Source: a virus (taxonomy: Duplodnaviria > Caudoviricetes). Taken from it: a stretch of 33,704 nucleotides of DNA. Shown in pieces: positions 9,018-33,704 of the stretch (within the stretch, counting starts at the first letter, position 1; each line of letters opens with the position of its first letter). The notes beneath the pieces were generated by a model. That model made no database searches. It was not told where the DNA came from and saw nothing but the letters and a program-made list of their open reading frames with translations. The translations under genes were made by a program, and so were the position numbers. The DNA lies in the IMG/VR virus record IMGVR_UViG_3300010273_000169, positions 1-33,704 of that record, one strand, 5' to 3'.

Positions 9018-9854
9018 CTAAGAGGCGATCTTGAAAATCAGGTCTGGAGTGAGAGCCTTCACGCCGTAGTTGTAGAACAGCGAGATGGCACTGTCGTTGG
9101 AGAGTGGAATGCGCTCGGGTTCGGTGTACGGATAAGTGACTACAGGCTGAGCGACGGAGCCGATAGCCATAGCAAGCACTTTGATACCCGCCGGCAGGTT
9201 CAACCCGCTGTAGACCCTCACGCCGTGGAACATAGCGAACTCTTCAGCCGCGGTATCCACGTTTGACGCAGGCAGGCTGTCAAGATGCAGACGGATCTTG
9301 CCGTAGAATGCCGGGGTGACGACTGCCACGATCATGTTACGGGGCACGCCCTGAACGTAGTCGTTCTTGACGGTTTCCAGCGTCTGAATGATCTCTTCAA
9401 GCTGCTCAGCCTCAGTCGTACCTACCGGCACAACAGCAGTCGCGGCTGCACCCGCGGCAGCGAAGAACGCGATATCCAGGTCAGTAGCCATGGTGTCGAT
9501 GTGGTTAGCCGCGCGCCGCTTCATGACGTTGGTCACGCCGAAGGTATCCAGGTCGAAGTTTGCGACCTCTTCCACGATCTCTTTCTTCTGGTCCAGGTTC
9601 ACCGTGGTTGGGGGCGCGGTGACAACATCGCCCTTGGCAGCGGTTCTAGCCGTGCCATACGGCTTGGCGACGCTGTTAACGAAACGCTTGAACTCGACTG
9701 AACCTGTTGCGGGGTTGCCCGTATACAGAGTGCTCTTGAGAAAGTCAGACAGAGTTGCCTTGCGAACGTTGTCGATGACTATCCCGTAGATTTCCTGCAG
9801 GTCAGCGTTAACGCCTACGGCCTGCAGAAGTGAAATGGCTTTGGTTCTCGCCAC
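9018..9854 (-). CDS. Major capsid protein
   Basis: 278 aa after the scaffold; GTG start with AAAGGA RBS; HK97-fold-like VAVVTPAFYGKI and GVRVYS, ending YNYGVKALTPDLIF. Confidence 0.88.
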   Translation of the reverse strand: MARTKAISLLQAVGVNADLQEIYGIVIDNVRKATLSDFLKSTLYTGNPATGSVEFKRFVNSVAKPYGTARTAAKGDVVTAPPTTVNLDQKKEIVEEVANFDLDTFGVTNVMKRRAANHIDTMATDLDIAFFAAAGAAATAVVPVGTTEAEQLEEIIQTLETVKNDYVQGVPRNMIVAVVTPAFYGKIRLHLDSLPASNVDTAAEEFAMFHGVRVYSGLNLPAGIKVLAMAIGSVAQPVVTYPYTEPERIPLSNDSAISLFYNYGVKALTPDLIFKIAS

Positions 9855-12175: not shown

Positions 12176-13572
12176 TATTCAAGGACCTCTGCATCCTCGG
12201 CCTCAGGCTCTTTGTCGCCGTTCACGTCTATGACCCCCAGCGGAAACGGAGTAGACGTGGCCTGTTCCTCCCGCAACTGCTCCATCTCTTCTTCAACTTC
12301 CTTGTCGGTCAAACCACGCTGTTTAAGAGCGCTGTACTGCGACATGATGGGTTTACCGCCCGTGGCAGTGGTGAGCATGTTGACCTGTTCCACTGGGTCA
12401 TCAGGTAGGCCGTCATGCCACGTGATGGTGAGCGTGTCGTAATCCAAGGTGATCCCGTTCACTTGGGCCAACAAAGACACGATGGTCTTTACCGTGCCGG
12501 CGTTCATGCCGGCAATTCGGGCCGCTTTGACCCGAGGGCTGACCATCTTCAGTTTCAGCGCGGTACCGCTCTGAGCCGAACCTCCCCCGCCGCCTTCGAT
12601 GAAGGCCTGGCCCATTTCTGTGAGGATATAAAGCTGGTTAAGGAGCAGCTCAATCTCCTTCCAGTTGTCACCAAGGTTACCGTCCCACGTGACGTACGAG
12701 ATGTCAGGATCGTCTTTCGTCTCGCGCTTGAAGTAGTTGCCGAGGTTTACATACCAAAGGCCGCTGCGCTCATCGTAGGAGAGGGCTGAGGCCGGTCCGC
12801 TCATCGATGGGTCGGAGTGTTTATCAAGAATAGCGTCAGCACGATGCAAACGCCACATGATCTTCGCCACGATGGAATTGATGATCTCATAGTCGTCCAG
12901 ACCGTAGATGCTGCCGCTGTGCGTGACGTTCGTCAGCACCTGGACTGCGAAGTCCTGCAGGCCCGTCTGATTGGTCTTGGTCTCCTTGAGAGCGCCGATT
13001 TCCTGCCGCTTCTCATCGTATGCGTATGTCCGCTGCTCGATCTGACCAATACTGTGGATCTCGACGTACAGTTCAGTCATAGCGCCTTGAGCGTCCGGTG
13101 TTATGGGGTACGCGATCACGTGTTGGGTGACGGTTTTCAAGTCGTTAGGAGCGACAATCGGGAACCAGTACATAGGCGAAGCTATCGTGAGGCCTTTCCC
13201 CACAATCTTGAGCACGGCGTCACCATACCGGGATACGTCGATAATCGCTTCGTAAAGCTTCGCCGCGAACCTTTGGCGGTTAAGAATCTTCAGCAGTTCA
13301 TCCGTCTGGCCTCCGGTCTCAAACGTTGGAGGTTCCGCGCACACGAAATCGGCGATCTTCTTGCTGAGCAGCTGGTGGTAGTTGAAGACTGTGTTGACGT
13401 CCCATGTTGACAACCGGTAACGACGAGACAACTCCGCGAACGCGGTCTGCCATGCTTCGGTGTGCTTCGTCAGGAACAGCTTCTCATGCAGTTTGTAGCG
13501 TTCAATGCGCCCCTTCTCGGAGGCGGGAGGGTAGGGAGAACCAGACTGTAGCCAATTCAGATTCGTGAGCAT
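12175..13572 (-). CDS. Portal protein (SPP1/A118-like)
   Basis: Start placed at ATG 13572 (AGGAGG 9 nt upstream); NYHQLLSKKIADF, SGTALK and ITWHDGLPDD motifs. Confidence 0.9.
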   Translation of the reverse strand: MLTNLNWLQSGSPYPPASEKGRIERYKLHEKLFLTKHTEAWQTAFAELSRRYRLSTWDVNTVFNYHQLLSKKIADFVCAEPPTFETGGQTDELLKILNRQRFAAKLYEAIIDVSRYGDAVLKIVGKGLTIASPMYWFPIVAPNDLKTVTQHVIAYPITPDAQGAMTELYVEIHSIGQIEQRTYAYDEKRQEIGALKETKTNQTGLQDFAVQVLTNVTHSGSIYGLDDYEIINSIVAKIMWRLHRADAILDKHSDPSMSGPASALSYDERSGLWYVNLGNYFKRETKDDPDISYVTWDGNLGDNWKEIELLLNQLYILTEMGQAFIEGGGGGSAQSGTALKLKMVSPRVKAARIAGMNAGTVKTIVSLLAQVNGITLDYDTLTITWHDGLPDDPVEQVNMLTTATGGKPIMSQYSALKQRGLTDKEVEEEMEQLREEQATSTPFPLGVIDVNGDKEPEAEDAEVLE

Positions 13573-13587
13573 CGTCGTAACCCTCCT

Positions 13588-13650
13588 CGCCATAACGAAG
13601 CGCCGCCATCGCGTCATCTATGTTTCAATCCACGCCTCAAAAGAGGCGAC
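13588..13650 (-). CRISPR. Solitary type I-C-like CRISPR repeat (13650-13622) plus one 34-nt spacer (13621-13588) homologous to terL
   Basis: Repeat GTCGCCTCTTTTGAGGCGTGGATTGAAAC has a 6-bp hairpin and the 11-nt TGGATTGAAAC tail. The spacer ATAGATGACGCGATGGCGGCGCTTCGTTATGGCG is 27/34 identical to terL 13745-13712. No second repeat and no cas operon in the window. Confidence 0.8.
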
Positions 13651-14939
13651 TATCGGATCTGCACCTGAACAAACTCGCCACCACCACCGCGACGTGGCCG
13701 CCAGCGCTCAACGCCGTAACGGAGCGCGGCCATGGCATCATCGAAATACTCTACCGGCTCATCGATGTAGAGCCCTGTCTGCGGGTCCTTCTTCCATTTC
13801 CACTGCTGGATCTCTTTGATGGTGTTCACGCAGGAAGGATGGATGTGGATCTTCCTGCCTTTCAGGAAGTCAATCTGGGCCTTGACACTACCAGGTTCCT
13901 TCTTCACCGGCCTGGCGCGATAACCGGCTTTGCGCCACGTCGCTATGCGGTCAGGCTCAGCGGAGTCACACCACATCTCTTCTTGCTTGCTGACGCCGGC
14001 CTTGTTGGCCAGCTCGATGATCTCGTTGGTGTCTTTCTCGAAGACGTATATCTCTGACCGGACATAAACCTCGCCGTCTTTCCAACCGAGAAGAAGGATA
14101 GCGTTGGCGTGGTTAAAACCGAAGTCCTGACCGATGGCAACTGCGTCGAAGTAGTCCCTGTCCTGACGGAATTCGTGTATCTCGAAGTTGGTCAAGATCT
14201 GGCCGCCCAGTTCGCCCCACTCACCGAGGCCGTATACGCGGTAACCATCCGGATCTTCGATGCGGCGCCGCTCCATACGGGCGTAGTAGCCCTCGTCGAT
14301 GAAGCGGTTGTCCCGGTAAGTCGAATGGTGGGTGAAGACCTCTGGGTCTTGCCTGTCAAAGTACCGCGCTTTTATCCAGTGAGTGGCGCTCACCGGGTTG
14401 AAAGTCATCGTGATCTGGTAGTACAGATTCGGATTGATGCCGGCCAAGTCCCCACGGAGGCGGTCGTCAAGGATATCCACGTCCTCCTGCAAGAGTTCTG
14501 TGGCTTCCTCAATCCATATCCAGCAGAGCTTGCCCTTGCGAAAGGTGATGGACTTGACCTTTTCACGCTGACCTTGGTCCTTCATACCGCGGAAGATGAT
14601 CCGGTTGCCCGTTGCCCGGCACTCCATCATGAGAGGGTTCAGGTTGATCTTCCAAAACCTCTCGGAGTACTCACCGAAAAGCCTGTATATGGCAGCCTGG
14701 AGCTCAGCAAAGGTGCTGTCGCGATTCGTTTCCTCGATCTTACGGACCACAAGTAAGTTGGCGCCAGTGAAACGCGGGTCCGAGAGTTTCTTGATGTAGT
14801 CCTGGGCGATGTTAACTGACTTGCCGGAACCGGCGGACCCTTTCAGAATGCGATATCGCGTCCTGCATGCGTTGACTGGCCGGAATATTGGGTTCCACCG
14901 GGCAACAGCCTTGTGGACGACAGCGCTATTCAGGTTCAT
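13650..14939 (-). CDS. terL: Terminase large subunit (PBSX family)
   Basis: Walker A GSAGSGKS, WIEEATE, TFNP..HWIK, GQDFGF, DSAEPDRI, DDAMAALRY; start taken at ATG 14939. Confidence 0.96.
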   Translation of the reverse strand: MNLNSAVVHKAVARWNPIFRPVNACRTRYRILKGSAGSGKSVNIAQDYIKKLSDPRFTGANLLVVRKIEETNRDSTFAELQAAIYRLFGEYSERFWKINLNPLMMECRATGNRIIFRGMKDQGQREKVKSITFRKGKLCWIWIEEATELLQEDVDILDDRLRGDLAGINPNLYYQITMTFNPVSATHWIKARYFDRQDPEVFTHHSTYRDNRFIDEGYYARMERRRIEDPDGYRVYGLGEWGELGGQILTNFEIHEFRQDRDYFDAVAIGQDFGFNHANAILLLGWKDGEVYVRSEIYVFEKDTNEIIELANKAGVSKQEEMWCDSAEPDRIATWRKAGYRARPVKKEPGSVKAQIDFLKGRKIHIHPSCVNTIKEIQQWKWKKDPQTGLYIDEPVEYFDDAMAALRYGVERWRPRRGGGGEFVQVQIR

Positions 14940-15363
14940 CGCCGTAGTCATCGGCGATCACCACTGTGATAGGCAGATTGACGTCCAGTTTGTCCGTGAA
15001 CATGCCGAGACGTTTCCCAATGAGCTCGGCGGCCTTATTCCGATCCCGGACGCTAACCTTTTTCCGAACAATACGAGCGCCAGAGCAGCCGTCGCCCTCA
15101 CCTTCGATAACGACGACATCTTCAGATACTTCCTCTCGCATAACTGACGTCAGATACTGGAGGACTTCCACTGCTCCGGCTATCCGCTTTTCCTCTAACT
15201 CCTTGAGCCGAGCGTCAATCCTGTCTCTAAGTTTTGCTACGTTCTGCGCGCCCTGAACATGTGGCTGTTTGTACCCAGCGCGTCTTGCCGCTTCCGTCTG
15301 ATTCCCCGTTTCGACGTAGTAGTCTATGAAACGCTTTTGCTTTTCGGTCAGTCTCTTGTTCAT
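14926..15363 (-). CDS. terS: Terminase small subunit
   Basis: LTEKQKRFIDYY..GNQTEAARRAGY; KAAELIGKRLGMFTDK. Confidence 0.95.
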   Translation of the reverse strand: MNKRLTEKQKRFIDYYVETGNQTEAARRAGYKQPHVQGAQNVAKLRDRIDARLKELEEKRIAGAVEVLQYLTSVMREEVSEDVVVIEGEGDGCSGARIVRKKVSVRDRNKAAELIGKRLGMFTDKLDVNLPITVVIADDYGDEPE

Positions 15364-15770
15364 GTCTTACCAAACCTATTCAGTATGAGTTGCTCCTCGT
15401 TGACATGCATCTTGGCATGACAGCCGTTGCACAGCGTCATGCCGTTATTGACGTCGATTCGGCCTCCGGGGTAATCAGACCAAGGGATAACGTGATGGGC
15501 CTCTACATTCTCTGTTGAACCGCAGCAAACACACTTGTGACCGTCGCGCGCCATAACATCATTCTTCCACTTCATGACCCTCTCATCATGCCTACTAAGC
15601 GGCGCGATGGCGCTATCAACCACAATCTCGCGCCAATTCGGAAGGTAGTGCCGGAGGATCAAGATGGCGGCCTTCTTACGCACGTAATCAGTAACAGATT
15701 CACTTATCAACACAGCCAGGGCGTTTACCACCAGCGAAAACTCTCTACGAGTCAACCCTCTGGCCACCAT
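15360..15770 (-). CDS. HNH endonuclease
   Basis: RDGHKCVCCG..EAHHV..NGMTLCNGCH; ATG 15770 with GGAGGTG. Confidence 0.9.
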   Translation of the reverse strand: MVARGLTRREFSLVVNALAVLISESVTDYVRKKAAILILRHYLPNWREIVVDSAIAPLSRHDERVMKWKNDVMARDGHKCVCCGSTENVEAHHVIPWSDYPGGRIDVNNGMTLCNGCHAKMHVNEEQLILNRFGKT

Positions 15771-16089
15771 TGTCACCTCCGGCCTCTTCATTAGCCGCAA
15801 CAACTCTAAAGCCGTTGTCGGTGATAACCATCATTAACCCCGCTGCAAGACAAGCGACTTGTCGCTCTTTCAGATTCAGGTCAAACAACTCACTTAAGCC
15901 ATGCAGTACTTCATGAAGAAGAGTGGTCACAACTCGTTCGGTCGTGAACTTGGTGGTGATCTGAATCACATCTTGACCAAACGAAATATGCCCGTACAAC
16001 TCTTGACTGTCTTCGACAATACCTTCCGGTACTGACTCAACTCGATACGTATACGGTCCTATCTTGATCTCCTTCGGCAAAATCGCCAT
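15745..16089 (-). CDS. Small zincin-type (HExxH) metallopeptidase-like phage protein
   Basis: TLLHEVLHG motif plus downstream E (LKERQV); first gene of the late operon. Confidence 0.75.
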   Translation of the reverse strand: MAILPKEIKIGPYTYRVESVPEGIVEDSQELYGHISFGQDVIQITTKFTTERVVTTLLHEVLHGLSELFDLNLKERQVACLAAGLMMVITDNGFRVVAANEEAGGDNGGQRVDS

Positions 16090-16145
16090 TATTGCACCGA
16101 CTTTCCTCCGGAAACTTTTATACTATTGACGGAGGTGAGAACAAA

Positions 16146-16379
16146 ATGGCAAACAAAAAGATTCACATTGTACCCCGAGACGATCAATGGGCTGTAAGGC
16201 GTGAAGGCGCTGAAAGACCATCCAGAGTCGTAAGCACGCAAAAAGAAGCAATAGAAATCGGGCGCCAACAAGCCCAACGAGCTAAGACAGAATTAGTAAT
16301 CCACGGCCACGACGGTAAGATTCGAGATAGCGACAGCTATGGCCGTGACCCGTGCCCGCCCAAAGACCGAAAGCACTAA
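16146..16379 (+). CDS. DUF2188-family protein (antisense moron)
   Basis: HIVPRDDQWAVRREGAERPS..TQKEAI..ELVIHGHDGKIRDSDSYGRDPCPPKD; GGAGGTG RBS before ATG 16146. Confidence 0.88.
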   Translation: MANKKIHIVPRDDQWAVRREGAERPSRVVSTQKEAIEIGRQQAQRAKTELVIHGHDGKIRDSDSYGRDPCPPKDRKH

Positions 16380-16393
16380 GCCTGAAACACTGA

Positions 16394-16417
16394 AGCCGCC
16401 CGACCCCGTGGGCGGCT
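16394..16417. terminator. GC-rich hairpin after the DUF2188 gene (weak or bidirectional terminator)
   Basis: AGCCGCCC-N8-GGGCGGCT; only partial U tracts on either strand. Confidence 0.5.
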
Positions 16418-16435
16418 CCACTTTCTGCTGTTAAC

Positions 16436-16480
16436 ACGATACCATGTTTCATAACGCCAAAAGTGCAAATCTAGTGCAAA
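16436..16480 (-). promoter_or_regulatory. Putative late promoter with activator-binding direct repeat
   Basis: TTTGCACT twice (16480-16473, 16469-16462; 11-bp period) right after the RinA-like stop, then an extended -10-like TGGTATCGT. Confidence 0.65.
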
Positions 16481-16482
16481 CC

Positions 16483-16890
16483 TCACAGCAGGCCCATTTC
16501 CCTTGCGATAGCCAAGAGTATCTGTCCTCGCCAGTAAAAATACGTCCGTCTAGAGACGTGCAACCGTCGGTATATACCTAAATCGGTGAGTTCTCGCTGC
16601 CAGTAACGCATTTCAACCAGACGCTTCTTCTCCGGTTCCAACCGTTCATAGACCCTCGTGATAGCCTCGTAATGCTCTACCAGGCGTTCCAAGCGTTTGG
16701 AGGTTAAGAGCCGCATAACCCGGGAGAGAGTGGGGTCCCCGACGCCTTCAGCGCCCACAGCGGCCAGCCGCTCAGGAGTGGCGTCGATAATGTCCGCCCT
16801 TAACCTCTCAATCTCTTGCTTGCGCCACGGATAGGCGTACAGCTCGGCTTCTACGTACCGGAAGACGTCGCGTTCGTAACGCGTAGTCAC
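16483..16890 (-). CDS. RinA/ArpU-family late transcriptional activator
   Basis: FRYVEAELYAYP, GDPT, KKRLVEMRYW and LHVSRRTYFYWR motifs; GTG start overlapping the SNF2 stop. Confidence 0.85.
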   Translation of the reverse strand: MTTRYERDVFRYVEAELYAYPWRKQEIERLRADIIDATPERLAAVGAEGVGDPTLSRVMRLLTSKRLERLVEHYEAITRVYERLEPEKKRLVEMRYWQRELTDLGIYRRLHVSRRTYFYWRGQILLAIAREMGLL

Positions 16891-18266
16891 GCCACACCCC
16901 TCCTTGCCTCTTCGATCCTGACTTTCAGGGCATTCAGCAACCGGTCTTGCGTATCGCATTTCTCGTCCAGGGCCGCCATCACGTCCTCATCCATGCCGCC
17001 TTCAACAACAAGGTGATGGATGATGACCTTCTCCTTCTGACCCTGGCGGTGAAGCCGTTTGTTAGCCTGTTGGTACAGCTCAAGTGACCAGGGAAGACCG
17101 AACCAGATAACCTGGTTTCCGCCTTCCTGCAAATTTAACCCGAAGGCGCAGCTGGCCGGATGGGCCAACAGGATGTCGATCTTCCTGGCATTCCAGTCAT
17201 CCTCATCCTGGGGTCCCCTCAAAACCCGCACACCCAGGCCTGTGCCGGCAAGCGCCCTCTGCAGCCGCGCGAGGTCATGCTGGTAACTGTAGAACACTAA
17301 TGCCGGCTGGCCGTTCAACGCTTCCACCAATTCCATGAATGCCTCGATCTTGCACTGGTGAACCTCGACCACGTTCTTAGCCTCGTCGTAGACGGCACCG
17401 TTACAGAGTTGCAGGAGTTTCCCGGTAAGGACGGCGGCCGTCCCCGCGTCGATCATTTCCCCGTCCACTTCAAGGAGCATCTCCCGCTCCATCCGGTCAT
17501 AGGCAGCCTGCGCTTTACCGTCCAGAGTAACCGGCACATTCACTGGTGTAACATCCGGAAGGTCCAGATAATCCTCCGCCCTCATACTGATGCAGATGTC
17601 GCTTATCCGTTCGTGAATTGCTTCCGAGGCCCCAGGCTTCGGCCGATAACTGAAGACGTGGTCCCGGTTCCGCTGATCAGGCTCGAAGTACCTTTCCCGG
17701 TAATGAGTGATACGTTTGCCCAGTCTTTCACCTTGGTCCAAGAGGTACATCTGGGCCCACAGGTCGATGAGGCCGTTGGGCGCCGGCGTGCCGGTCAATT
17801 CCACAATACGCTTCACGTGTGGCCGGACCCAAGATAGCGCTTTGAACCGTTTCGCCTGGTGATTCTTGAAGCTGCTCGATTCGTCAACAACAACCATGTC
17901 AAAAGGCCAATCATTCCGGTAATAATCCACCAGCCAAGGTACATTCTCGCGGTTAATCACATACACGTCTGCCGGGGTGTTAAGTGCGCGTATACGCTGT
18001 GTCGCGGTTCCCAATACGCCAATTACTCGCAGATGTTTCAGGTGGTCCCATTTTAACGCTTCGCGACTCCAAGTTTTCTCTGCTACACGTTTCGGCGCTA
18101 TGACCAAAGTACGACTGATTGCAAATCGGTTGTATCGCAGGTCATTGATGGCGGTCAAGGTGATTACAGTCTTGCCAAGTCCCATGTCCAATAGCAGCGC
18201 GACCGCCTCGTCTGAAATCAGCCGGTTAATGCAGTATCGCTGGTATGGGTGTGGCTGGAATTTCAC
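16887..18266 (-). CDS. SNF2-family helicase
   Basis: LDMGLGKT, VVDESS, LTGTPAPNGL, GLNLQ, QANKRLHRQGQ. Confidence 0.95.
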   Translation of the reverse strand: MKFQPHPYQRYCINRLISDEAVALLLDMGLGKTVITLTAINDLRYNRFAISRTLVIAPKRVAEKTWSREALKWDHLKHLRVIGVLGTATQRIRALNTPADVYVINRENVPWLVDYYRNDWPFDMVVVDESSSFKNHQAKRFKALSWVRPHVKRIVELTGTPAPNGLIDLWAQMYLLDQGERLGKRITHYRERYFEPDQRNRDHVFSYRPKPGASEAIHERISDICISMRAEDYLDLPDVTPVNVPVTLDGKAQAAYDRMEREMLLEVDGEMIDAGTAAVLTGKLLQLCNGAVYDEAKNVVEVHQCKIEAFMELVEALNGQPALVFYSYQHDLARLQRALAGTGLGVRVLRGPQDEDDWNARKIDILLAHPASCAFGLNLQEGGNQVIWFGLPWSLELYQQANKRLHRQGQKEKVIIHHLVVEGGMDEDVMAALDEKCDTQDRLLNALKVRIEEARRGVA

Positions 18267-18547
18267 TTGCTGATGACCTCCCTCAGCAAGGCGTCAACCA
18301 GGTTTCGGCTATCGACATCCGCGAAGACATCGAAGCCTAGGCTCCTTATGCGTCTCTGCTGCGCGGCCTGAAGTGCCGTTGACTTCTTGCCCGGCGCCTT
18401 CAACTCTACAAATGCGATCTTGCCGCCTGGTAACAGTACCAAGCGGTCAGGCACCCCTGCGTTTCCAGGGGAAACGAACTTGTACGCCCGGCCTCCCATG
18501 GCATTAACCCTTTCACGGAGATACGCTTCAATACTTGACTCCCTCAC
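18263..18547 (-). CDS. VRR-NUC domain nuclease
   Basis: KFVSPGNAGVPDRLV..FVELKAPG; GTG start with GGGAGGTG. Confidence 0.93.
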   Translation of the reverse strand: MRESSIEAYLRERVNAMGGRAYKFVSPGNAGVPDRLVLLPGGKIAFVELKAPGKKSTALQAAQQRRIRSLGFDVFADVDSRNLVDALLREVISK

Positions 18548-18567
18548 GAGGCGCACCTCCCTGTGCC

Positions 18568-18823
18568 GTCTACATTGTCTACAAAACTACATACGCGCGT
18601 ATATGTACGTGCGATCAGGCGCGTTAGGCGCGCGTGGGTGTGTGTATTCTCCCTATTACCTCTCTTTTTTACTTTAATAGAGAAAGAATGTAGACAATGT
18701 AGACAGGAAGGTATTTGACCTGCTACGGCATGTGTTTTTGCGTCTACATTCAATGTAGACGAAGTAGACAATGTAGACAGTCCAGTGGGGGAGAATGTAG
18801 ACAATGTAGACGAGAATGTAGAC
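18568..18823. repeat. Iteron array (AATGTAGAC), probable replication origin
   Basis: Exact 9-mer at 18687, 18696, 18752, 18770, 18794, 18803 and 18815; inverted copies at 18568 and 18742; degenerate copies at 18577 and 18761; AT-rich tract ~18660-18686. Confidence 0.85.
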
Positions 18824-18830
18824 GGGTTTC

Positions 18831-21230
18831 TCATTTCCGTACGAACCCCCTTTGACTACCGTAGCAGCCGGCGCGGAACGGGCTCGCGTTTGGCTTCCAT
18901 CCTGGAATTGAGGCCAGGATGCTGTTGATTTCCACTGCATCTGCTCGTCGCATGTGCTTTAGGTCGCCTCCTAGGCACTCACACCAAATCTCGGCCGCGC
19001 ATATCCGGTCCCGCTCGACGGTCTCCGTCTCAAGCCCTCGCCCGAACTCTGCACTCCAATACATCCTGCGTTCGGCCAAAGACCGCTTGTCCCAGTTAAG
19101 CGGTACCCGCCGCTCCACGAACTCGCGGATGATCCCCTCTTTGGCGTTGCTCTCTTCATGGGATTTCTGTTCCTGACGCGCTATCCGTTCGGCCTCGCCA
19201 GTGAGATACAGCCGTTCTCCCATTTGCCAGCGGAAGAACGCCTCAGCCCATATCTGGTCCACTTCGTTTTCCAGGTCGGTGAAGACGTTCTTTGTAGGAG
19301 TCTGGACGTACACATCTACTGGCCAGAAACGGCGGTTGCCGGTCCGGTCCCGGAGGAACTCCGTGTCGTTGGTGGTCCCAAAGAACACGCATCGGCGTGG
19401 ATAAAGGTTCGTCCTGCGGCCGTATGGTTCTCGATAGATGTCCTCTGACCTACTGAGGAACTGCTTTACAGCGCTCGTCTCAGCGCGCGTAAGGCCGTTT
19501 AGTTCGCCGATCTCATTGATCCACGTGCCCTGAATCATCTCAGCGGCTTCTTTACCCTCGAAGACCGCGAGGCTGTCCGAATACCACTTACGACCGAGAA
19601 GCCGGAGCATGGTGCTTTTTCCAACACCCTGGGGCCCTGAGATAATGGGCATGTAGTCGTACTTGGTCCCGGGCACCATGGCTCTGGCCACAGCGGCCGT
19701 GAGACTCTTGCGGGCTACAGCACGGGTGTAGACGTTATCTTCGGCGCCCAGGTAGTCAATAAAGAGAGTATCTAGACGCGGTACTCCGTCCCACTCAAGC
19801 CCTTTCAGGTAATCCTGGACATCGTTGATAGTGTGCTTGTGCGCCGCCAGAGCCGCGGCGTCGTATACCCGCTCCTTACCCGTGATGCCGTAAGTGTGTT
19901 CCAGGTAATGTCGGAGTCCGGCGTCATCGACGTCCGTCCATTGCCGGCGCCCTGTGCGGGGGTCCCATGGGAGAGCACCTAGGGCCAAACCCCGGTTCGC
20001 GAACTCGTCAAAGGCCAATTTGTCCTTGAGAAGGGGATCATTCTCCAGAATAATGAGGATGTTGTCGACGGTCTTCTCGGGTTTCCCGGTAAGTGAAGAG
20101 AGTTTCAACTTGGCTATCCAGTTGGCGTCTTCACCAGTACTTACCGATGCCCGAAAATCTGCTGTAGCCTGCTCATACCGTTCCTGATTCAAGAGTGTCG
20201 CAACAGCAGTATCGGCTACCGCGAGCTCGCACATGGCCGTATACGAGGGCAGTCTGTTAGTCGGCGTTTCCGGCTTCATGTCATCGTCGCGGTCACCGAA
20301 CTTGTGTAGTCGAACAAGGTCGAAGGCATTGACCAGACGCCCACTGCACGGGTCTGTGGCGTGATGGGAGTACAAGAAGGCCCCATTGTCGTAGACAATC
20401 GCCCCACCTGTGGTGCTGCCTCCCGTGTATGTGAAGCGTCCCGGGTTATCGACGCAGGGCTCATAGACGCCCGGGAGGAACGTTTCCATGGCCTTGTAGA
20501 CATCGTAGACGCGGCAGAAGGCCCCTACTATCCCGGGCTTGGCTGTCGGGTCACCTTGCTTGTCTGCGAGGCGCTTGTGTTCCTTTTGAGCGCCCGGGAC
20601 CTGTGGCCACTCGTTCACATCTCTCCAGTCGCGGTACATCGCCAGGAGTCCGTCCACGTCTAGGATGGGCTTATCGCCATATTGATAGACGAACTGGCTG
20701 TCAGCGCAGCAGGACGGCCAATACATGAGACGTGAGGCCTCGAACGTCGATGGGTCGCACAATTCAATGCCTATGATGCTTGCAAGTTTTCGCGCCAGGG
20801 GTTCATACTCGTCTGCTGTGGCCGTGCGGTTGAGAAGAACCAGGACCCGTAAGCGGGGTTTGGCCTCTTCGTGCTTGCGGGTGCTGTACACGCAGTAGGC
20901 GCACCCGAGGGCCTCGATACGGCGTAAGGCGTCCTGCGTGCCGCCGGCAGGGATGTTATCGAGGTCCAGGGTTAACACATCACGTCCGAGGACGCTGTTT
21001 GCCTTGCGGCGGCCGTCCTTGAGGATGCCGCCCACGAAGCCTCCCACGTCTTTGAGGTCATCCTGCTTGGATTTCGGCAAACGGAGGTACTCCGCTAGGC
21101 TCTCGGTGCCTCGGGCGGGGGTCCTGACCTTCTCAACAAGCTCCGACCACCAGAGTGTTTGTGAGGGCCACCGGGTAGCCCTGCGGCTCCCGGCGGCACT
21201 GATAGTGATTTGTCTGTCGTAGTTGAGCAT
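18831..21230 (-). CDS. Primase-helicase (VapE / virulence-associated E family)
   Basis: N-terminal LTLDLD/YSTRKH primase motifs; GPQGVGKST Walker A; EIGEL; FFGTTN..FLRDRTGNRRFWP. Confidence 0.93.
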   Translation of the reverse strand: MLNYDRQITISAAGSRRATRWPSQTLWWSELVEKVRTPARGTESLAEYLRLPKSKQDDLKDVGGFVGGILKDGRRKANSVLGRDVLTLDLDNIPAGGTQDALRRIEALGCAYCVYSTRKHEEAKPRLRVLVLLNRTATADEYEPLARKLASIIGIELCDPSTFEASRLMYWPSCCADSQFVYQYGDKPILDVDGLLAMYRDWRDVNEWPQVPGAQKEHKRLADKQGDPTAKPGIVGAFCRVYDVYKAMETFLPGVYEPCVDNPGRFTYTGGSTTGGAIVYDNGAFLYSHHATDPCSGRLVNAFDLVRLHKFGDRDDDMKPETPTNRLPSYTAMCELAVADTAVATLLNQERYEQATADFRASVSTGEDANWIAKLKLSSLTGKPEKTVDNILIILENDPLLKDKLAFDEFANRGLALGALPWDPRTGRRQWTDVDDAGLRHYLEHTYGITGKERVYDAAALAAHKHTINDVQDYLKGLEWDGVPRLDTLFIDYLGAEDNVYTRAVARKSLTAAVARAMVPGTKYDYMPIISGPQGVGKSTMLRLLGRKWYSDSLAVFEGKEAAEMIQGTWINEIGELNGLTRAETSAVKQFLSRSEDIYREPYGRRTNLYPRRCVFFGTTNDTEFLRDRTGNRRFWPVDVYVQTPTKNVFTDLENEVDQIWAEAFFRWQMGERLYLTGEAERIARQEQKSHEESNAKEGIIREFVERRVPLNWDKRSLAERRMYWSAEFGRGLETETVERDRICAAEIWCECLGGDLKHMRRADAVEINSILASIPGWKPNASPFRAGCYGSQRGFVRK

Positions 21231-21235
21231 GGATG

Positions 21236-21727
21236 TCACTCCTGCGTGGGCGCTTCGATGTCTCTATACGCCTTTATGAACACAATCCAGTGCTTGCGCC
21301 TGCCGTACCTCTCGGCCACGATGGGCTTCTCTGGCGTCAAGGCGAGCACTTCGCCTAGCGGTATGTCGCTGTCACTCCACTTGAACACCAGCGTCCCTCC
21401 GGGCTTCAGCACCCGGAAACACTCCTCGAAACCCCGCCGCAGGTCGTCCCGCCACGAGTCCGAGAGTTTGCCGTAAGCCTGCGTTAGCCAGGCGTTGGGG
21501 CCGCTGCGCAGAAGATGCGGCGGGTCAAAGATCACGAGTGAGAAGGCTCTGTCCGCGAACGGCAGGGCGCGGAAGTCCATGAGCATATCGGGCGCGATAG
21601 ACAGTACCCGGCCGTCGCACTGCTTGATGTCCTCCTGCCTGATGTCGCCGAACAGCACGCGCTCATCGCGCTTGTCGAGGTAGAACTTCTTAGCCCCACA
21701 GCAGGGGTCAAGAACGGGATGGCTCAA
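21236..21727 (-). CDS. SAM-dependent DNA amino-methyltransferase (N6-A/N4-C type)
   Basis: VLDPCCG (motif I), IFDPPH (motif IV), ECFRVLKPGGTLVFKW; TTG start after GAGAGGAGG. Confidence 0.85.
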   Translation of the reverse strand: MSHPVLDPCCGAKKFYLDKRDERVLFGDIRQEDIKQCDGRVLSIAPDMLMDFRALPFADRAFSLVIFDPPHLLRSGPNAWLTQAYGKLSDSWRDDLRRGFEECFRVLKPGGTLVFKWSDSDIPLGEVLALTPEKPIVAERYGRRKHWIVFIKAYRDIEAPTQE

Positions 21728-21741
21728 GATACAGCCTCCTC

Positions 21742-22035
21742 TCATCCGAACATGACCTTCAGCGCGACCATGACACCCGCCAGCATCAGGGAAAGGGTGT
21801 TGGTTACAAAGAAGGCATAGGCAGATTTCCGCGATATGAGGTAAATGGCATAGACCTCCATAAAGACTACGCCCACAAAGATGGAGACCAGGTAGACAAG
21901 GTTCAGGTCCCTGGTGAGGCCCGTCCGGACGATCTGCGCTATCTGCGGGATGTAGCCTGCGGAGAGTATTATTCCGCCCAGCAGTTGCAGGCCGCTGAAG
22001 AACCAGGCTTTCCTTTTCTCATCGGTCTTGCTCAT
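21742..22035 (-). CDS. PQ-loop / SemiSWEET-like small membrane transporter
   Basis: 97 aa with three hydrophobic helices; GYIPQIAQIVRT..TRDLN motif; late Asn (VTN). Confidence 0.8.
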   Translation of the reverse strand: MSKTDEKRKAWFFSGLQLLGGIILSAGYIPQIAQIVRTGLTRDLNLVYLVSIFVGVVFMEVYAIYLISRKSAYAFFVTNTLSLMLAGVMVALKVMFG

Positions 22036-22107
22036 TCTGCAAGCCTCCTCTCATGCGATGGAGCGGGCGGGGCATTATGCTCAGCCGGAGCGCCCCGCCC
22101 ACAAGTG

Positions 22108-22455
22108 TCAGGCCCTGAACGGGCTAGATAGGTCAAACAAGGTGTCCAGGAGGTCGTCGATGACCTTCTGCACGGTCTCAGCCGAGAGCCGGCTGTTCTT
22201 GGCGGCCACCATGTTGATGACTAGGGTGTACAGGACGGTGTTGCTCTTGATGACGTCCCTCAGGCGCTGGGCGCTGGCCCTGGAGCCAACCATGGTAGCC
22301 AAGAGGTCATACTTGGTGCCGAGCGCCGAGATCATCTTCAGGCCTTCATCTATCTGGTTGAGGCCGGTGACAAGGGCCTCGCCTTTGGTCATGACGGGCT
22401 CTTCGGGGGCCGCTGGGGTCTCGGTACCAATCACGGTTTCTTCGATATCCAACAT
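22108..22455 (-). CDS. Hypothetical helical protein
   Basis: ATG 22455 with AAGAGGAG; co-oriented in the operon. Confidence 0.7.
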   Translation of the reverse strand: MLDIEETVIGTETPAAPEEPVMTKGEALVTGLNQIDEGLKMISALGTKYDLLATMVGSRASAQRLRDVIKSNTVLYTLVINMVAAKNSRLSAETVQKVIDDLLDTLFDLSSPFRA

Positions 22456-22477
22456 TCGAGTCACTCCTCTTAATGGG

Positions 22478-23500
22478 TTATGAAGCAAACGCACCAGAAG
22501 GGAGATCCCACTTCTCAGTGATTAGGTCTTTGGCGTGTATCTCACCGAGTAAGGCAATGCGTACCCATTTCTCGGCGTCGAGGTTCCGGGGGAGACGGGA
22601 CTCCCCGAGGTCTGCTAGTTGGGTCAAGGTCAGTTTGTTGTCGATGGTATGACCGAGGTCTTTCTCCATCTCCACGAGCTGACGGAACCGTTCAGGGGAT
22701 ATCTCCCTCATCGTTGCCCACTGGTCAGCCGTGCTGAAGATACAACCGAAGCATGACGTCCTGTTGAAGCCCAGCCAGTAGGCAGGATGAGGGAGGATAC
22801 GAAACTGCTCAAGTATGTCCCAAATCGCCCTTTCGGGCCATTCGATGACCGTACGCCACCAGGTCACTTCTCTGCGCCGGCTATTGCAGGGATGCTCTTC
22901 TACGTTCAAGTAGCGGGCACGATTCGCCGATTCTTCTCTGCGCTCCCCGGTTATCACGAGAAACCTACCCTCTTGATAGTCGGGGTGATTGTTGAGTACG
23001 CGCCGCATGACGTCGATTTTGAGGTAGGCAGTGCACCATCTGGTCCTCAAGTCAACGGCCTTTGCCGGGAACTTCTTGCGAGTTGCTGCTTTGCCGTTTC
23101 TCGTGGGCAGCGTAATGATCTCACTGCCGCGCTCATACTGGACGTCATTGGTTCGACGGTTCTCTCTCATCAATTCACCGTAGAAGCCTTGCTTGCGCCA
23201 CTGGAATTCAGTCTGAATCCCCATAGCCTCGCCGAACGCTCGAACATAAGGTTCTGTCACAGGCCAGTCAGCGAACTGAATCTCTCCAGGGGCGCCATCT
23301 ACAGATTGATGCCAGAGGACTATTCTATCCTTGGGAATACCGATTTTGAGCAGGTACAGAACGCACGCCGTGCTGTCCTTACCGCCACTGGTGGAGACAA
23401 TGATCCTATCGTATGTAGTCAGGTCAGCTAGTTTAGCGGCCTTTGGGTCTTCAGCCACTTCCAGCTCTTCATATTCCACTGGGCAAGCAAGGGCAGTCAC
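22478..23500 (-). CDS. PAPS-reductase-family (PP-loop) protein
   Basis: VSTSGGKDS PP-loop, RWCTAYLK, TGERREESANRA, HPAYWLGFNRTSCFGCIF. Confidence 0.88.
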   Translation of the reverse strand: MTALACPVEYEELEVAEDPKAAKLADLTTYDRIIVSTSGGKDSTACVLYLLKIGIPKDRIVLWHQSVDGAPGEIQFADWPVTEPYVRAFGEAMGIQTEFQWRKQGFYGELMRENRRTNDVQYERGSEIITLPTRNGKAATRKKFPAKAVDLRTRWCTAYLKIDVMRRVLNNHPDYQEGRFLVITGERREESANRARYLNVEEHPCNSRRREVTWWRTVIEWPERAIWDILEQFRILPHPAYWLGFNRTSCFGCIFSTADQWATMREISPERFRQLVEMEKDLGHTIDNKLTLTQLADLGESRLPRNLDAEKWVRIALLGEIHAKDLITEKWDLPSGAFAS

Positions 23501-23506
23501 GGATTA

Positions 23507-25483: not shown

Positions 25484-25553
25484 GGTGCATTCTCCTGACG
25501 CTGATTTCCGCGTGTTTTGCCGGATGCGCGGCCCCCGGATGCGCCGTCAGGTG

Positions 25554-26276
25554 TTACGAGATACCCATGACCCCGCCGTTGACGGGCTTGCCCGTAATTG
25601 GGTCAATCTGAGCAGCCGGTTGTGTGTAGTTCGGTTGCTGCGGTGACTGCCCATAGGCCGGCTGGTACTGTGGCTGGTAACCCGGTTGCGTGTACCCTTG
25701 CCCCTGGCCCGGGGAAGGCTGCTGGGCCCACTGTGGAGGCTGGCCAAAGTCATCTTCCGGAGTTGTCCGGTTGCCGAGCGGCTCACCATCGCGCAGTTTC
25801 TGCACGTTGCCGAGGCCACACCCGATTCCCTTCTTACCGCTGTTAGCGTACGGGAAGAAGTCCACGCTCACCCGGCCGTAGCATCCGCTATAAACCTCAG
25901 TCTGATTGATGATGGGGTTGAGCTGAGCATCAACAATCTGCGGCGGGTTCTTTGACGAAGCCGTGAAGACCCAGTGACCCTTGCACTCGGGGCCGAAGGG
26001 CATCCCGTCAGAGGGCCTCGTGCCGTCCCCGTCGTACACCGGAATTCCGAGTACTGGGGGACGAACGCCGTTCCATGTCTTCTTGATCCCGAGTTCGATG
26101 GCGGCATTGATGGCGGCGTCAATCCGTTGTTTTGTCGCCACATCCGACTTTGGGACGAGGACTGTGACCGAGTACTTGGCTTCTGTCTGTCCCGGCCTTG
26201 CGTAAGGCGTGAACAGATGTACGAATGAAAGTCTCACTTCACCTGTGACTACATGTTGCGGGTTCTCTCTTGCCAT
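25554..26276 (-). CDS. DUF2815-family single-stranded DNA-binding protein with Q/P/Y-rich tail
   Basis: VRLSFVHLF, YDGDG, VYSGCYGRVS and GLGNVQKLRDGEPL motifs. Confidence 0.9.
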   Translation of the reverse strand: MARENPQHVVTGEVRLSFVHLFTPYARPGQTEAKYSVTVLVPKSDVATKQRIDAAINAAIELGIKKTWNGVRPPVLGIPVYDGDGTRPSDGMPFGPECKGHWVFTASSKNPPQIVDAQLNPIINQTEVYSGCYGRVSVDFFPYANSGKKGIGCGLGNVQKLRDGEPLGNRTTPEDDFGQPPQWAQQPSPGQGQGYTQPGYQPQYQPAYGQSPQQPNYTQPAAQIDPITGKPVNGGVMGIS

Positions 26277-26294
26277 CTCTCCAATTTCTCCTTT

Positions 26295-28531: not shown

Positions 28532-28923
28532 ATCTTCGCCCCCAATTGGCGAAGAGCTGTGGCAAACTCGCCGTAACGCTCTTTAGGCAGCTGGGTAAGC
28601 GCCTGCACTCCGAAGGAGTTCAACAGGTTGACAATTTCTTGTCTCTTCCCACCGTCGATGAGCGGTGTGGCTGCGACGGCTAACCGCTCCAGGGTGTATG
28701 TAGGAGCAGATGTTGGAACGGTAGCCGGAGGCTGCTTGGTAGGCTGCTGTACGGGGGTCTGTCCGACTGGCATGGCAGCTGTGGTCGGCTGTGCCACAGG
28801 GGTAGTAGTCGGTGAACTTGCTTGTTGAGACATAGGAGCGGCGCTGTTAAGCGCGGCTATAAGGTCCCTGATGGCCGCGAGAAGGTCGCCGGCGTCAAGT
28901 TTGACGGTAATCTCGGTACTCAC
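28528..28923 (-). CDS. Conserved phage protein of the DUF2800/DUF2815 module (Pro/Thr linker, C-terminal helical domain)
   Basis: GTG start after GAGGAGG; YTLERL..LLNSFGVQALTQLPKERY motif. Confidence 0.75.
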   Translation of the reverse strand: MSTEITVKLDAGDLLAAIRDLIAALNSAAPMSQQASSPTTTPVAQPTTAAMPVGQTPVQQPTKQPPATVPTSAPTYTLERLAVAATPLIDGGKRQEIVNLLNSFGVQALTQLPKERYGEFATALRQLGAKI

Positions 28924-28954
28924 GTTTTCATCCTCCTCTGGTCTCTCTGTGGCC

Positions 28955-30814: not shown

Positions 30815-30912
30815 TCACTAACTGTGTTCATAATAGCGACCGATATAGGTCTTGTCAACACTAAATGTGAGTATTTTGTATTGAGATCTTGTCTGTTATC
30901 ACAGGAGGTGAT
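30815..30912. promoter_or_regulatory. Genetic switch: lytic promoter plus three WCAC-N5-GTGW operators
   Basis: Minus-strand TTGACA (30858-30853)-N17-TATTAT (30835-30830). Operators TCACtaactGTGT 30815-27, ACACtaaatGTGA 30858-70 and ATCACaggagGTGAT 30898-912. Confidence 0.75.
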
Positions 30913-30915
30913 TCA

Positions 30916-31533
30916 ATGAGCGCAGGTGGTGATTGGTTGTTCAGCCTCGTTCTGAAACAGCTAAGAGAAGAAAAAGGGTTGTCCCAGTACAAATTAGCTG
31001 AACTTCTTGGCGTGGCTCAGTCCACAGTAGGTATGTGGGAGAGCGGTAAGCGAGAACCGGATTTCGCCATGGTCAAGAGGCTCGCGGACTTCTTTTCAGT
31101 TTCTACGGACTACCTCCTAGACCGCCCCGCCAAATCAAAAGGTGTCCCGATCCCTGTTCTTGGTAGAGTCCCGGCCGGCATTCCCATTGAGGCTGTGCAA
31201 GAAATCCTCGATTACGAAGAGATCACTCCGGAAATGGCCTCCCAGGGTGAGTTTTTCGCTCTTCAGATTAGAGGAGACAGTATGGCTCCTCGCATCCGCG
31301 AAGGTGACGTTGTCATTGTTCGTAAGCAGAATTGGGTTGATAACGGCGACGTTGCGGTTGTGCTGGTAAACGGGGAAGATGCCACAGTGAAGCGGTTCTA
31401 CCAGTCCGAACAAGGAGTCAAATTGGTATCGGCGAATCCTGCGTATGAGCCTTTGTTCTACACTGCCTCCGAAGTAAAGAGTCTTCCTGTGGTCATTATC
31501 GGCAAAGTCGTGGAGTTGAGAGGGAAGTTGTGA
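30916..31533 (+). CDS. cI: CI/LexA-like repressor (HTH plus S24 autopeptidase)
   Basis: XRE HTH; cleavage site VPAG; catalytic GDSM Ser and ATVKR Lys; start ATG 30916 or TTG 30937. Confidence 0.95.
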   Translation: MSAGGDWLFSLVLKQLREEKGLSQYKLAELLGVAQSTVGMWESGKREPDFAMVKRLADFFSVSTDYLLDRPAKSKGVPIPVLGRVPAGIPIEAVQEILDYEEITPEMASQGEFFALQIRGDSMAPRIREGDVVIVRKQNWVDNGDVAVVLVNGEDATVKRFYQSEQGVKLVSANPAYEPLFYTASEVKSLPVVIIGKVVELRGKL

Positions 31534-31557
31534 TGCGCTCAGCAGGGAGGTAATGAA

Positions 31558-32148
31558 ATGTACTGCCCCAATTGTGGAAAGGAAGTCACCGGCAAATTTT
31601 GTTCGGAATGCGGCACGCCCGTTGGTTCATCGCCCCAAGTCACTGCACAGTCACCTAGCATAACGGAAGATACTTCTATCGTCATTAATGACCAGCGCAT
31701 AGATCTACAGGCTCTTGTAAACATGCACGGGAAAAACCGAATAGCTGCTGTCAAAGAGGTTCGCGCTCTCACGGGATTGGGGCTGGGCGAAGCCAAAGAT
31801 GTTGTCGATAGCGCTTACGCGATGTTCGCCCCGGCCGAGAAGTCATCCGGTGGTTTTTGGGCAAAAGTCAAAGAGAACGCCGAGGCCAAGCGGGTAGCGG
31901 AACAGGCTGAAGCTTTGCGGGAGGCCCAGCGCCTTCAACAACTCGAACGAGACGGTATTCCTTACTGTCCTAAGTGCCACTCCACGAGTCTATCAGCGCA
32001 TAAGAAAGGTTTCGGATTCGGAAAGGCCGTAGTAGGTGTATTAGTGGCGGGCCCCATCGGTCTTGCCGCCGGGGGCTTGGGCTCTGGTAAGGTTAAAGTA
32101 ACCTGCCTTAAGTGCGGACATCAGTTCATGGCCGGCAAAGGTAAATGA
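31558..32148 (+). CDS. Zn-ribbon + ribosomal L7/L12-CTD-like + membrane-hairpin Zn-finger protein
   Basis: MYCPNCG..FCSECG; RIAAVKEVRALTGLGLGEAKDVVD; CPKCHS..GFGFGKAVVGVLVAGPIGLAAGGLG..CLKCG. Confidence 0.8.
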   Translation: MYCPNCGKEVTGKFCSECGTPVGSSPQVTAQSPSITEDTSIVINDQRIDLQALVNMHGKNRIAAVKEVRALTGLGLGEAKDVVDSAYAMFAPAEKSSGGFWAKVKENAEAKRVAEQAEALREAQRLQQLERDGIPYCPKCHSTSLSAHKKGFGFGKAVVGVLVAGPIGLAAGGLGSGKVKVTCLKCGHQFMAGKGK

Positions 32149-33704
32149 AAGCCGTTATCTACGCCCGATACTCACCTGGTCCTGATCAACGCGAGGAATC
32201 CATTGAAGGCCAGATTCGGGAATGCACGGAGTATGCGGAACATCACGGCATAACCGTTGTAGGCCATTACGCTGACCGCGGTATCAGTGGCCGCACCGAC
32301 AACCGGGCAGAGTTTCAGCGGATGCTTAAGGACTGTGAGAAGCGCCTCTTTGACGCGATCATTGTATGGAAGATCAATCGGTTTGGCCGTAACCGTGAAG
32401 AGATCGCGATCAACAAGGTCCGATGCAGAAAACACGGTGTAAAGGTCCTCTATGCCAAGGAGCACATCCCTGACGGTCCCGAGGGGATTATCCTGGAGTC
32501 AGTACTTGAGGGCATGGCTGAGTACTACTCTGCGAACCTGGCACAAGATGTTAAGCGCGGGATGAAGGAAAATGCTCTGAAGTGCATGTCCGCAGGTGGG
32601 ACAACGCTGTTCGGCTATCGGATCGGCGCCGACCGTAAGTACGAAATCCATCCGACCAATGGTCCTATCATGCAATGGGCCTTTGAGCAGTATGACAGCG
32701 GCAGAAGCTTAACCGATATCGTGAATGAGATGAACGCGAGAGGCGTAAAGTCCGCTACTGGCAAGCGGTTCACAACGAACAGCCTTCGGACCGCGTTCCG
32801 AAATCGGAAGTACACTGGCGTCTACATCTTTGATGATGTGGAGATCGAGGGCGGCATGCCGGCCCTCGTCGAAAAGGACCGCTTTGAGAGGGTGCAGAGG
32901 AGGTTGGATATGAACAGACGCGCCCCGGCCCGTAACAAGGCCAAGGTAGACTATCTCCTGACTGGTAAAGTGTTTTGCGGTCACTGCAATGCGCCTATGG
33001 TAGGGGAGAGCGGAACCGGACGCGGCGGCAAGACCTACAACTACTATAAGTGCGGCAAGGCCAAAAAAGACCATACGTGCAATAAGAGATCCGAACGCAA
33101 GGAGTGGCTAGAGGACCTGGTTGTCCGGGAGACCGTGGAGAAGGTTCTCGTCGATGACGTCATTGACATGATCGCGGAGAACGTTGAGAGGATTCAGGAA
33201 GCGGAGCGCAAGGACAGCGACCTCCAGTACCACGAAGAACGGCTGGCCGGCACCGAGAAGGCCATACGTAACCTGCTGAAGGCCATTGAGCAAGGCATCT
33301 TCACGCCCTCCACCAAGGACCGGTTGGATGAGCTGGAGCAAGAGAAAGCGGAGATAGAGAATGCTATTCTTCAGGCCAAGTCAACTGCTAGAGTGACGGT
33401 CACCAAAGATCAAGTCAAGTATTGGCTCAAGAGGTTTCAGGCGGGCGACATCAACGATCCTGAATACCGTCAACGTCTCGTGGAAACATTCGTGAACGCG
33501 GTTTTCGTGTATGATGAGGACTCTGACCAGGGCAATGGTGACAAGAAGATTGTTATCACCTATAATTACACAGGTGGGCAAACCACGGCTATTGGTTCGG
33601 ATTTGGCACAGGAATACCCACCACGTCTTATTAGTTTCCTCAGCGTTAAATGCGAGGGTGTCGGAACTGGCAGACGAGCTGGACTTAGGATCCAGTGCCC
33701 ATAA
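32145..33704 (+). CDS. Large serine recombinase (integrase)
   Basis: YARYS catalytic Ser, ADRGISG, RFGRN, recombinase domain, CGHC..YYKC..C zinc ribbon, coiled coil. Confidence 0.96.
   Translation: MKAVIYARYSPGPDQREESIEGQIRECTEYAEHHGITVVGHYADRGISGRTDNRAEFQRMLKDCEKRLFDAIIVWKINRFGRNREEIAINKVRCRKHGVKVLYAKEHIPDGPEGIILESVLEGMAEYYSANLAQDVKRGMKENALKCMSAGGTTLFGYRIGADRKYEIHPTNGPIMQWAFEQYDSGRSLTDIVNEMNARGVKSATGKRFTTNSLRTAFRNRKYTGVYIFDDVEIEGGMPALVEKDRFERVQRRLDMNRRAPARNKAKVDYLLTGKVFCGHCNAPMVGESGTGRGGKTYNYYKCGKAKKDHTCNKRSERKEWLEDLVVRETVEKVLVDDVIDMIAENVERIQEAERKDSDLQYHEERLAGTEKAIRNLLKAIEQGIFTPSTKDRLDELEQEKAEIENAILQAKSTARVTVTKDQVKYWLKRFQAGDINDPEYRQRLVETFVNAVFVYDEDSDQGNGDKKIVITYNYTGGQTTAIGSDLAQEYPPRLISFLSVKCEGVGTGRRAGLRIQCP
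33594..33623 (+). other. Candidate prophage attachment junction within the integrase 3' end
   Basis: GGTTCGGATTTGGCACAGGAATACCCACCA has a tRNA-3'-end-like GGTTCG...CCACCA layout; the protein loses integrase-like character after SDLAQEYPP. Confidence 0.45.

Follow-up and report, generated by a model that had tools for sequence, protein, structure and literature searches.

A solitary type I-C-like CRISPR repeat with a terminase-matching spacer in the terL stop codon of a temperate siphophage

What does a single CRISPR repeat, followed by a short piece of terminase-like sequence, do between the large terminase (terL) and portal genes of a phage? An earlier note on this DNA had proposed that the pair encodes a guide RNA which borrows host type I-C proteins against related phages. 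The window, meaning the whole stretch of DNA that was analysed, is a complete virus record of 33,704 bases with a G+C content of 55%. Comparison with PHROGs and Pfam revealed a siphophage gene set comprising tail genes, SPP1-like head and packaging genes, a replication module, a CI-like repressor and a serine integrase (Table 1). Phage proteins sit on contigs of 69-72 kb, and the element is therefore probably a prophage. The named homologues point to Bacillota as the host phylum, this being the sole name given among homologues of the integrase; a close integrase was absent from the order holding the nearest repeat, and a cas5 match was absent in genome G001. None of 222 host spacers matched the window phage or two related records (G403 and G407) at more than 70%, and an Rfam scan of the window gave no matches. 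In agreement with the earlier statement that the phage lacks a cas operon, no cas gene was found among the 41 larger ORFs compared with PHROGs.

The phage was detected in bioreactor, manure, sludge, biofilm and digester metagenomes. Five bioreactor runs, which may be where the record came from, were left out of the occurrence evidence, and the RNA runs X15-X20, with 0.06-0.20 of words present, carry no weight as evidence. Regarding gene content, the ORF in the major-capsid position (278 aa, 9018-9854, minus strand), 3′ of the scaffold gene, had no PHROGs or Pfam match, and a similar gene occupies the equivalent place in G403. In the replication module (21236-23500, minus strand) a DNA methyltransferase is accompanied by a PAPS-reductase-like gene, and the two may form a DNA modification pair.

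Table 1. Coordinates of the repeat-spacer unit and of the features discussed with it.
Feature	Position in window	Strand	Remark
CI-like repressor, gene of unlabelled function, serine integrase	30889..33704	+	marks the phage as temperate
Terminase large subunit (terL), PBSX/SPP1-like, Terminase_3 and Terminase_3C	13650..14951	-
Counterpart of the spacer in the carrier's own terL	13712..13748	-	13745-13712, 27/34; TAT at the PAM position (13748-13746)
Solitary type I-C-like CRISPR repeat, 29 nt	13622..13650	-	fold and likeness to the G033 I-C repeat
34-nt spacer with its origin in a related terL	13588..13621	-	in frame IDDAMAALRYG; 3′ end set by the empty-site allele
Ribosome-binding site (RBS) AGGAGG of the portal gene	13582..13587	-	directly after the spacer; also in the empty-site allele
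Portal protein, SPP1 Gp6-like, 465 aa	12175..13572	-

The repeat and its insertion site

The repeat folds into a 2-nt 5′ overhang, a 6-bp stem (13648-13643 paired with 13638-13633), a 4-nt loop and an 11-nt tail, the handle (13632-13622, minus strand), at -10.8 kcal/mol, and the stem pair probabilities were 0.97-1.0 in three mRNA contexts. The hallmark of I-C repeats described in PMC8524198, a 2-nt 5′ overhang, a stem-loop and an 11-nt 3′ tail starting with UGG, is present. The repeat falls short of the canonical I-C length (31-33 nt with a 7-bp stem); the shortening is confined to the loop side, and the bases read by Cas5c (the stem base, the UGG after the cut and the 11-nt tail; PMC8524198) are unaltered. 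Its next-best ungapped match in the window is 18/29, indicating that the repeat is solitary. Sequence, coordinates, hairpin, handle and solitary state were all as the earlier note had described them. A candidate degenerate second repeat in the portal gene at 13527 (17/29) was rejected, being one of eight background sites scoring at least 17 and lacking the UGG.

Host repeats were surveyed in 401 genomes from the phylum of G001. Two of these genomes carry a repeat that agrees with the window 29-mer in its first 8 and its last 16-17 bases. In G033 this repeat is 32 nt long (first 8 and last 17 nt in common), and its array comes after cas5, cas8c, cas7, cas4, cas1 and cas2, a complete I-C locus; cas8c was found in one of the two genomes bearing a G033-type repeat. 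The nearest host repeat and the fold together bear out the assignment to type I-C. The wider I-C repeat class was present in 85/401 genomes (>2,500 matches), with a single match of 28-30 nt, and the 222 host array repeats measured were 31-33 nt long, with 34 nt as the commonest spacer length (92/222). The 29-mer is therefore a derived form. The single short match among the 401 genomes (G157:C11:27911-27940, L202) likewise stands alone between genes and has a shortened loop. An identical repeat was absent from the 401 genomes, an exact search of IMG/VR returned nothing beyond another copy of the window phage, and comparison of the repeat with 50,697 cultured-phage records gave merely three short chance matches. 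The handle joined to a DDAMAA-coding stretch had that other copy as its sole match in IMG/VR; a family of units of this kind at the terL motif was thus not found.

Alleles of the site were read from contigs of four of the 20 runs holding the phage (X6, X7, X13 and X14), all of them DNA. An empty site was present in one 167-bp contig from X13 (depth 4.2; 27 differences over 13654-13800), in which the end of terL is followed by 20 loose bases, 17 of them equal to window positions 13571-13587, a stretch unique in the window. The terL stop of this relative is TAA, with the RBS next. From this junction it follows that the window differs by exactly 13588-13650 (63 bases), inside the stop codon and with no duplication. 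The unit is thus a clean 63-bp insertion into the terL stop codon, as read from one short contig, and the first G of the repeat (13650) serves as the final base of that codon. Two loci with the same portal type (L067 and L085) also lack the insert, making gain likelier than loss.

The filled allele was identical in X6 (411 bp, no differences) and was found in X14 with one difference, outside the unit, over 220 bp. Two other studies, with manure and digester metagenomes, contained the unit in identical form. In X7 the spacer and part of the repeat were covered, with three differences, two of them displayed and both outside. A contig of a 93%-identical sibling in X13 carries the unit ungapped, with 41 differences over 567 bp. 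Of these, 23 were displayed and none lies within the unit; the remaining 18, some of which might lie inside it, are too few to make up a different spacer. The same contig has two portal residues in common with P0133. Conservation outside the original sample, in line with the earlier note's condition that relatives keep the repeat, was thereby observed; the identical copies come from near-identical strains and hence hold little information on selection. No repeat was detected in the terL-portal gap of portal homologues (three other viral loci and one genome locus), and the expectation of relatives with the same repeat and varying spacers was not borne out.

The position of the unit raises the possibility of host-dependent mRNA processing, in which a Cas5c cut and Cascade binding upstream of the portal RBS would tune terL and portal expression in hosts equipped with type I-C. 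The end of the spacer adjoins the RBS, the cut site would lie 18 nt past the terL stop, and the hairpin forms in the mRNA context. However, relatives package their DNA without the unit, and a terL spacer defined by a PAM would be left unexplained; we consider this function very unlikely.

Origin of the spacer and search for targets

Mismatches between the spacer and the carrier's own terL fall at positions 1, 3, 9, 12, 18, 24 and 30, and the five internal ones, all at third codon positions, are synonymous, as had been claimed along with the coordinates and the 27/34 match. The next-best match in the window was 20/34, and 200 shuffled spacers reached at most 23/34. Homology to terL stops at 34 nt with unmatched flanks; extension past this point, which the earlier note had named as contrary evidence, was not seen. 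The spacer length, fixed by the empty site, is within the 33-36 nt criterion for I-C.

Since the own terL site lies 62 bp upstream of the unit, a 27/34 match could also be read as terL self-repression (CreA/crlRNA-like), as an integration site into host arrays, given that repeat-mediated prophage integration into arrays is reported (bioRxiv 10.1101/2020.10.09.333658), or as chance. Against self-repression, the own site has no PAM and is mismatched at positions 1, 3 and 9, the RNA has the same sense as the terL mRNA and so cannot be antisense, and the target is coding sequence rather than a promoter. Integration at this point would cut the late operon in two, and a 69-kb contig carries the unit intact. 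Chance is excluded by the shuffled spacers and by the enrichment of TTC described next. As a group these readings are scarcely credible.

The set of related terL genes consisted of 79 loci, the best 80 of 598 with the own copy removed. Within this set, the homologous site is preceded by TTC at 51/79 loci and by TTT at 21/79, both Phe codons, where the window phage has the Tyr codon TAT. At the protein level, 114/120 TerL sequences contain the motif, with Phe at the PAM codon in 90 and Tyr in 7. TTC is reported as the preferred I-C PAM, with TTT second in one system and poor in another (PMC5602111, PMC10579709). After dereplication at 95% (34/78 genes), TTC was as frequent at 13/1164 sense starts and at 43/2328 starts on both strands, and after dereplication at 90% at 17/1140 and 50/2280, respectively, such that ~1-2% of terL positions do equally well. 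The spacer matches relatives better on average (26.2/34) than the own site does (23.8/34). A random terL duplication would seldom start at a TTC-flanked site. On these sequence comparisons the spacer behaves like a true CRISPR acquisition from a related terL with a TTC PAM, the origin that had been suggested for it.

The target site encodes the active-site helix of the nuclease, as the earlier note had placed it: the family profile aligns to SPP1 G2P (2WBN, E 3.5e-5) and, in our reading of the alignment, invariant TerL D405 falls at His400 and an alanine at Asp403. Activity of SPP1 G2P is reported to require both residues (PMC2685612). With Ala at TerL residue 408 in place of the catalytic Asp403, and Asp in place of His400, the metal site must be built differently. 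The notion that the site is hard to mutate held for the protein but not for the DNA, where conservation is moderate (rank 159 of 1170 windows), relatives are mismatched, and every PAM-bearing relative has at least three mismatches outside the tolerated positions.

Near-perfect terL matches flanked by TTC had been predicted in other phages, but with the patterns used no perfect or near-perfect PAM-bearing target was found in IMG/VR, JGI metagenomes or cultured phages. Searching 50,697 cultured-phage records with the spacer gave merely three short chance matches. Ile-codon patterns recovered own copies alone from IMG/VR and JGI metagenomes (ATG targets being excluded by the pattern design), and Ile at spacer codon 1 was absent from all 114 TerL proteins that contain the motif. 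A pattern in which positions 9-21 were held constant retrieved three other loci, at 27, 27 and 30/34, none with TTC. One type I-C Cascade is reported to tolerate single mismatches at positions 6, 12, 18, 24 and 30 and nowhere else (PMC10579709). A relaxed pattern, permitting mismatches at these 6n positions and at position 3, identified eight IMG/VR loci with TTC at 28-29/34, whose mismatches outside the 6n positions are 3, 31 and 32 (four loci) or 3, 31, 32 and 34 (four loci). Targets better than the carrier's own 27/34 site therefore exist, as anticipated. Seed position 3 is mismatched in 77/78 relatives. Seed mismatches are reported to lower I-C interference (PMC10579709, PMC5602111), and in one I-C system a single one weakened interference while priming was good (PMC5602111).

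Loose contig ends in X6 and X7 contain TTC-flanked terL sites that co-occur with the window phage, mismatched at 3, 12 and 18 of 23 visible nt and at 3 and 9 of 19, the 3′ parts lying outside the view. Five related records have mainly terL DNA in common with the phage (68-73%), and G402, the one complete PAM-bearing target record tested, has terL DNA alone in common with window 14000-33704. G407, the one record sharing the integrase, had no match to the window terL; it is a mosaic sibling, whose replication and integration genes are 84-91% identical to those of the window phage but whose head-tail module is another one.

These results bear on whether the unit could be a tolerated scar, captured from a host array during repair of a CRISPR break near the terL protospacer and now drifting without function, the short loop and the altered seed position 3 being signs of that drift. 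Proximity to the homologous site is expected from recombination capture, and spacer-protospacer recombination is cited in PMC10434264. The repeat is shorter than host repeats, no matching target was found in the databases searched, the empty allele occurs in the same metagenome, and the promoter scan described below was negative. However, a crossover within the spacer would leave a tail of donor terL, and instead the portal RBS directly follows a clean insertion. The change in the repeat also leaves every base read by Cas5c intact, and the unit is ungapped in a sibling with 41 differences over 567 bp (18 not displayed). A functionless scar is rather unlikely in our assessment.

A candidate guide RNA from the late transcript

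A scan of 13300-16600 detected no promoter-like sites (shuffle mean 2.1; a weak scan). With no promoter-like site and the unit abutting the terL stop, its RNA should come from the late transcript, which argues against exclusion of superinfecting phages by a silent prophage and favours a role when the phage is induced or co-infects. The superinfection-exclusion role proposed in the earlier note is thus unlikely, and expression should track the late operon.

A mechanism consistent with these observations can be outlined. The single repeat-spacer unit that interrupts the terL stop codon would be a copy from a host I-C array, the presumed donor, and would be transcribed within the terS-terL-portal late mRNA. 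Host Cas5c, judging from its biochemistry, would cut at the hairpin base, releasing an RNA composed of the 11-nt handle, the spacer and portal mRNA. Host Cascade would load the freed RNA and recognise terL of related phages through the TTC or TTT of the Phe codon as PAM. The carrier would be spared by its Tyr codon TAT and its mismatches at seed positions 1, 3 and 9. As the PAM codon is in frame, 5 of 11 wobble bases fall on the tolerated positions 6, 12, 18, 24 and 30, a geometry that may widen the target range. The outcome would be Cas3 attack on competitors, or primed spacer acquisition against them, when the phage is induced or co-infects; the lysogen would gain no standing immunity.

The shakiest step is assembly of Cascade on an RNA without a 3′ hairpin. 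The single repeat, and hence the absence of that hairpin, was counted against a guide function, as were the lack of a perfect target in the databases searched, the mismatch at seed position 3, a repeat 3 nt shorter than host repeats, the negative promoter scan and the uniform spacer among relatives. Counted in its favour were the empty site, the TTC PAM, the intact bases read by Cas5c and the ungapped persistence of the unit in the sibling. On balance, we regard it as an even call that the unit is a one-repeat version of the virus-borne mini-arrays, expressed from late mRNA and acting at induction or co-infection. A more specific proposal is tentative and somewhat on the unlikely side: that a lone repeat-spacer arms a phage in one step, with Cas5c freeing the guide from late mRNA without a 3′ repeat, so that a phage, on induction or infection, directs Cascade-Cas3 and priming against co-resident relatives just as they compete for packaging, the Phe-codon PAM making the guide clade-wide.

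Related records were inspected for further I-C repeats, which were found in one of 49 related viral records (from 50 of ~100 loci). This record, G403, is syntenic with the window phage over head and tail (65-75%), has TAT at the PAM position, and carries two solitary I-C repeats elsewhere. The first (G403:C1:33435-33467, plus strand, L164/L170) is 33 nt long, is closely preceded by a sigma-70-like promoter (TTGAAA, 17 nt, TATGCT, by eye), and is followed by a spacer of ~20 nt and a degenerate second hairpin; by its layout it looks like a viral crlRNA/Cracr or Racr. The second (G403:C1:2978-3010, minus strand, L163/L169) is followed by ~35 nt, an RBS and a start codon, the repeat-spacer-RBS arrangement of the window unit. 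Neither unit had a target among the loci compared. A close terL was present in 1/401 genomes, which has 10 I-C-type repeats and a terL site without the PAM. The I-C repeats in G403 and in this genome are suggestive only as support for a guide.

A further reading of the window unit is an RNA anti-CRISPR decoy (Racr-like), in which the repeat in abundant late mRNA would bind Cas5c, nucleate Cas7 on an uncapped RNA and drain Cascade subunits, the spacer being incidental. In its favour, other solitary I-C repeats occur in the phage group, as in G403. Solitary repeats act as Racrs, one of them type I-C, and non-targeting crRNA also lowers interference, according to PMC10651486; moreover, the window unit has no 3′ repeat to cap a complex. 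However, the Racr candidates of that study were selected for a promoter no more than 250 bp away and lie clustered with acr genes (PMC10651486), whereas the window unit has no promoter-like site and its neighbours are late-expressed packaging genes. Nor would a decoy require its spacer to be of full length, defined by a PAM and directed at related phages. A decoy role for the window unit is distinctly improbable.

Relation to known viral CRISPR elements

Most knowledge of virus-borne mini-arrays, reportedly described by Faure et al. in 2019, comes from sequence surveys, and one archaeal system has been tested. Solitary repeats are commonly read as anti-CRISPR decoys. Some phage mini-array spacers are reported to be leaderless and aimed at adjacent genes of close relatives, with recombination with host arrays suggested as the route of capture (Medvedeva et al. 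2019, PMC6858448). Mini-arrays without cas genes or leader that spare their carrier are described there, in PMC7099407 (Iranzo et al. 2020) and in the review PMC11656645. The idea of a virus-borne spacer against an adjacent gene of related viruses is therefore already published.

Like these mini-arrays, the window unit has no cas genes, carries a related-virus spacer and faces a carrier whose orthologous site differs; the carrier would be spared by its sequence, and related targets match at 28-29/34 with the PAM and 30/34 without. In contrast to them, it has one repeat rather than two, of 29 nt rather than 31-33, with no identical host repeat found in the genomes surveyed. It also sits in a stop codon within the late packaging operon, with neither leader nor promoter, and has an empty-site allele but no exact target in the databases searched. 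Racrs, including RacrIC1 (Camara-Wilpert et al. 2023, PMC10651486), are likewise single prophage repeats with an I-C example and can be polycistronic; the window unit differs by its full-length spacer with a PAM-defined phage target, its late-operon position and the absence of a promoter or recognised acr gene beside it. CreA/CreR and viral Cracr RNAs similarly combine a degenerate repeat with a partly matching guide that borrows host Cascade (bioRxiv 10.1101/2023.03.03.530964; 10.1101/2024.10.29.618823), and I-C viral crlRNA examples are reported in the latter. Those RNAs silence host cas or toxin promoters, whereas the window spacer matches phage terL coding sequence.

The literature searches listed no paper on an I-C unit that has one repeat, carries a terminase spacer and lies within a late operon, and the survey supplements (Faure et al. 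2019, bioRxiv) may contain similar ones. Judged by its sequence, the unit would work like a mini-array while lacking the two-repeat feature, and is described here as a solitary repeat with a real spacer and a proposed function. As a solitary repeat with a PAM-defined anti-phage spacer, it blurs the division between mini-arrays and decoys. The filled and empty alleles of one site bear on how viruses acquire such units, and the unit, at 63 bp, offers a simple means of asking whether type I-C systems need a 3′ hairpin. If the proposed function is true, guides can hide as one-repeat inserts in structural operons, where array finders would miss them.
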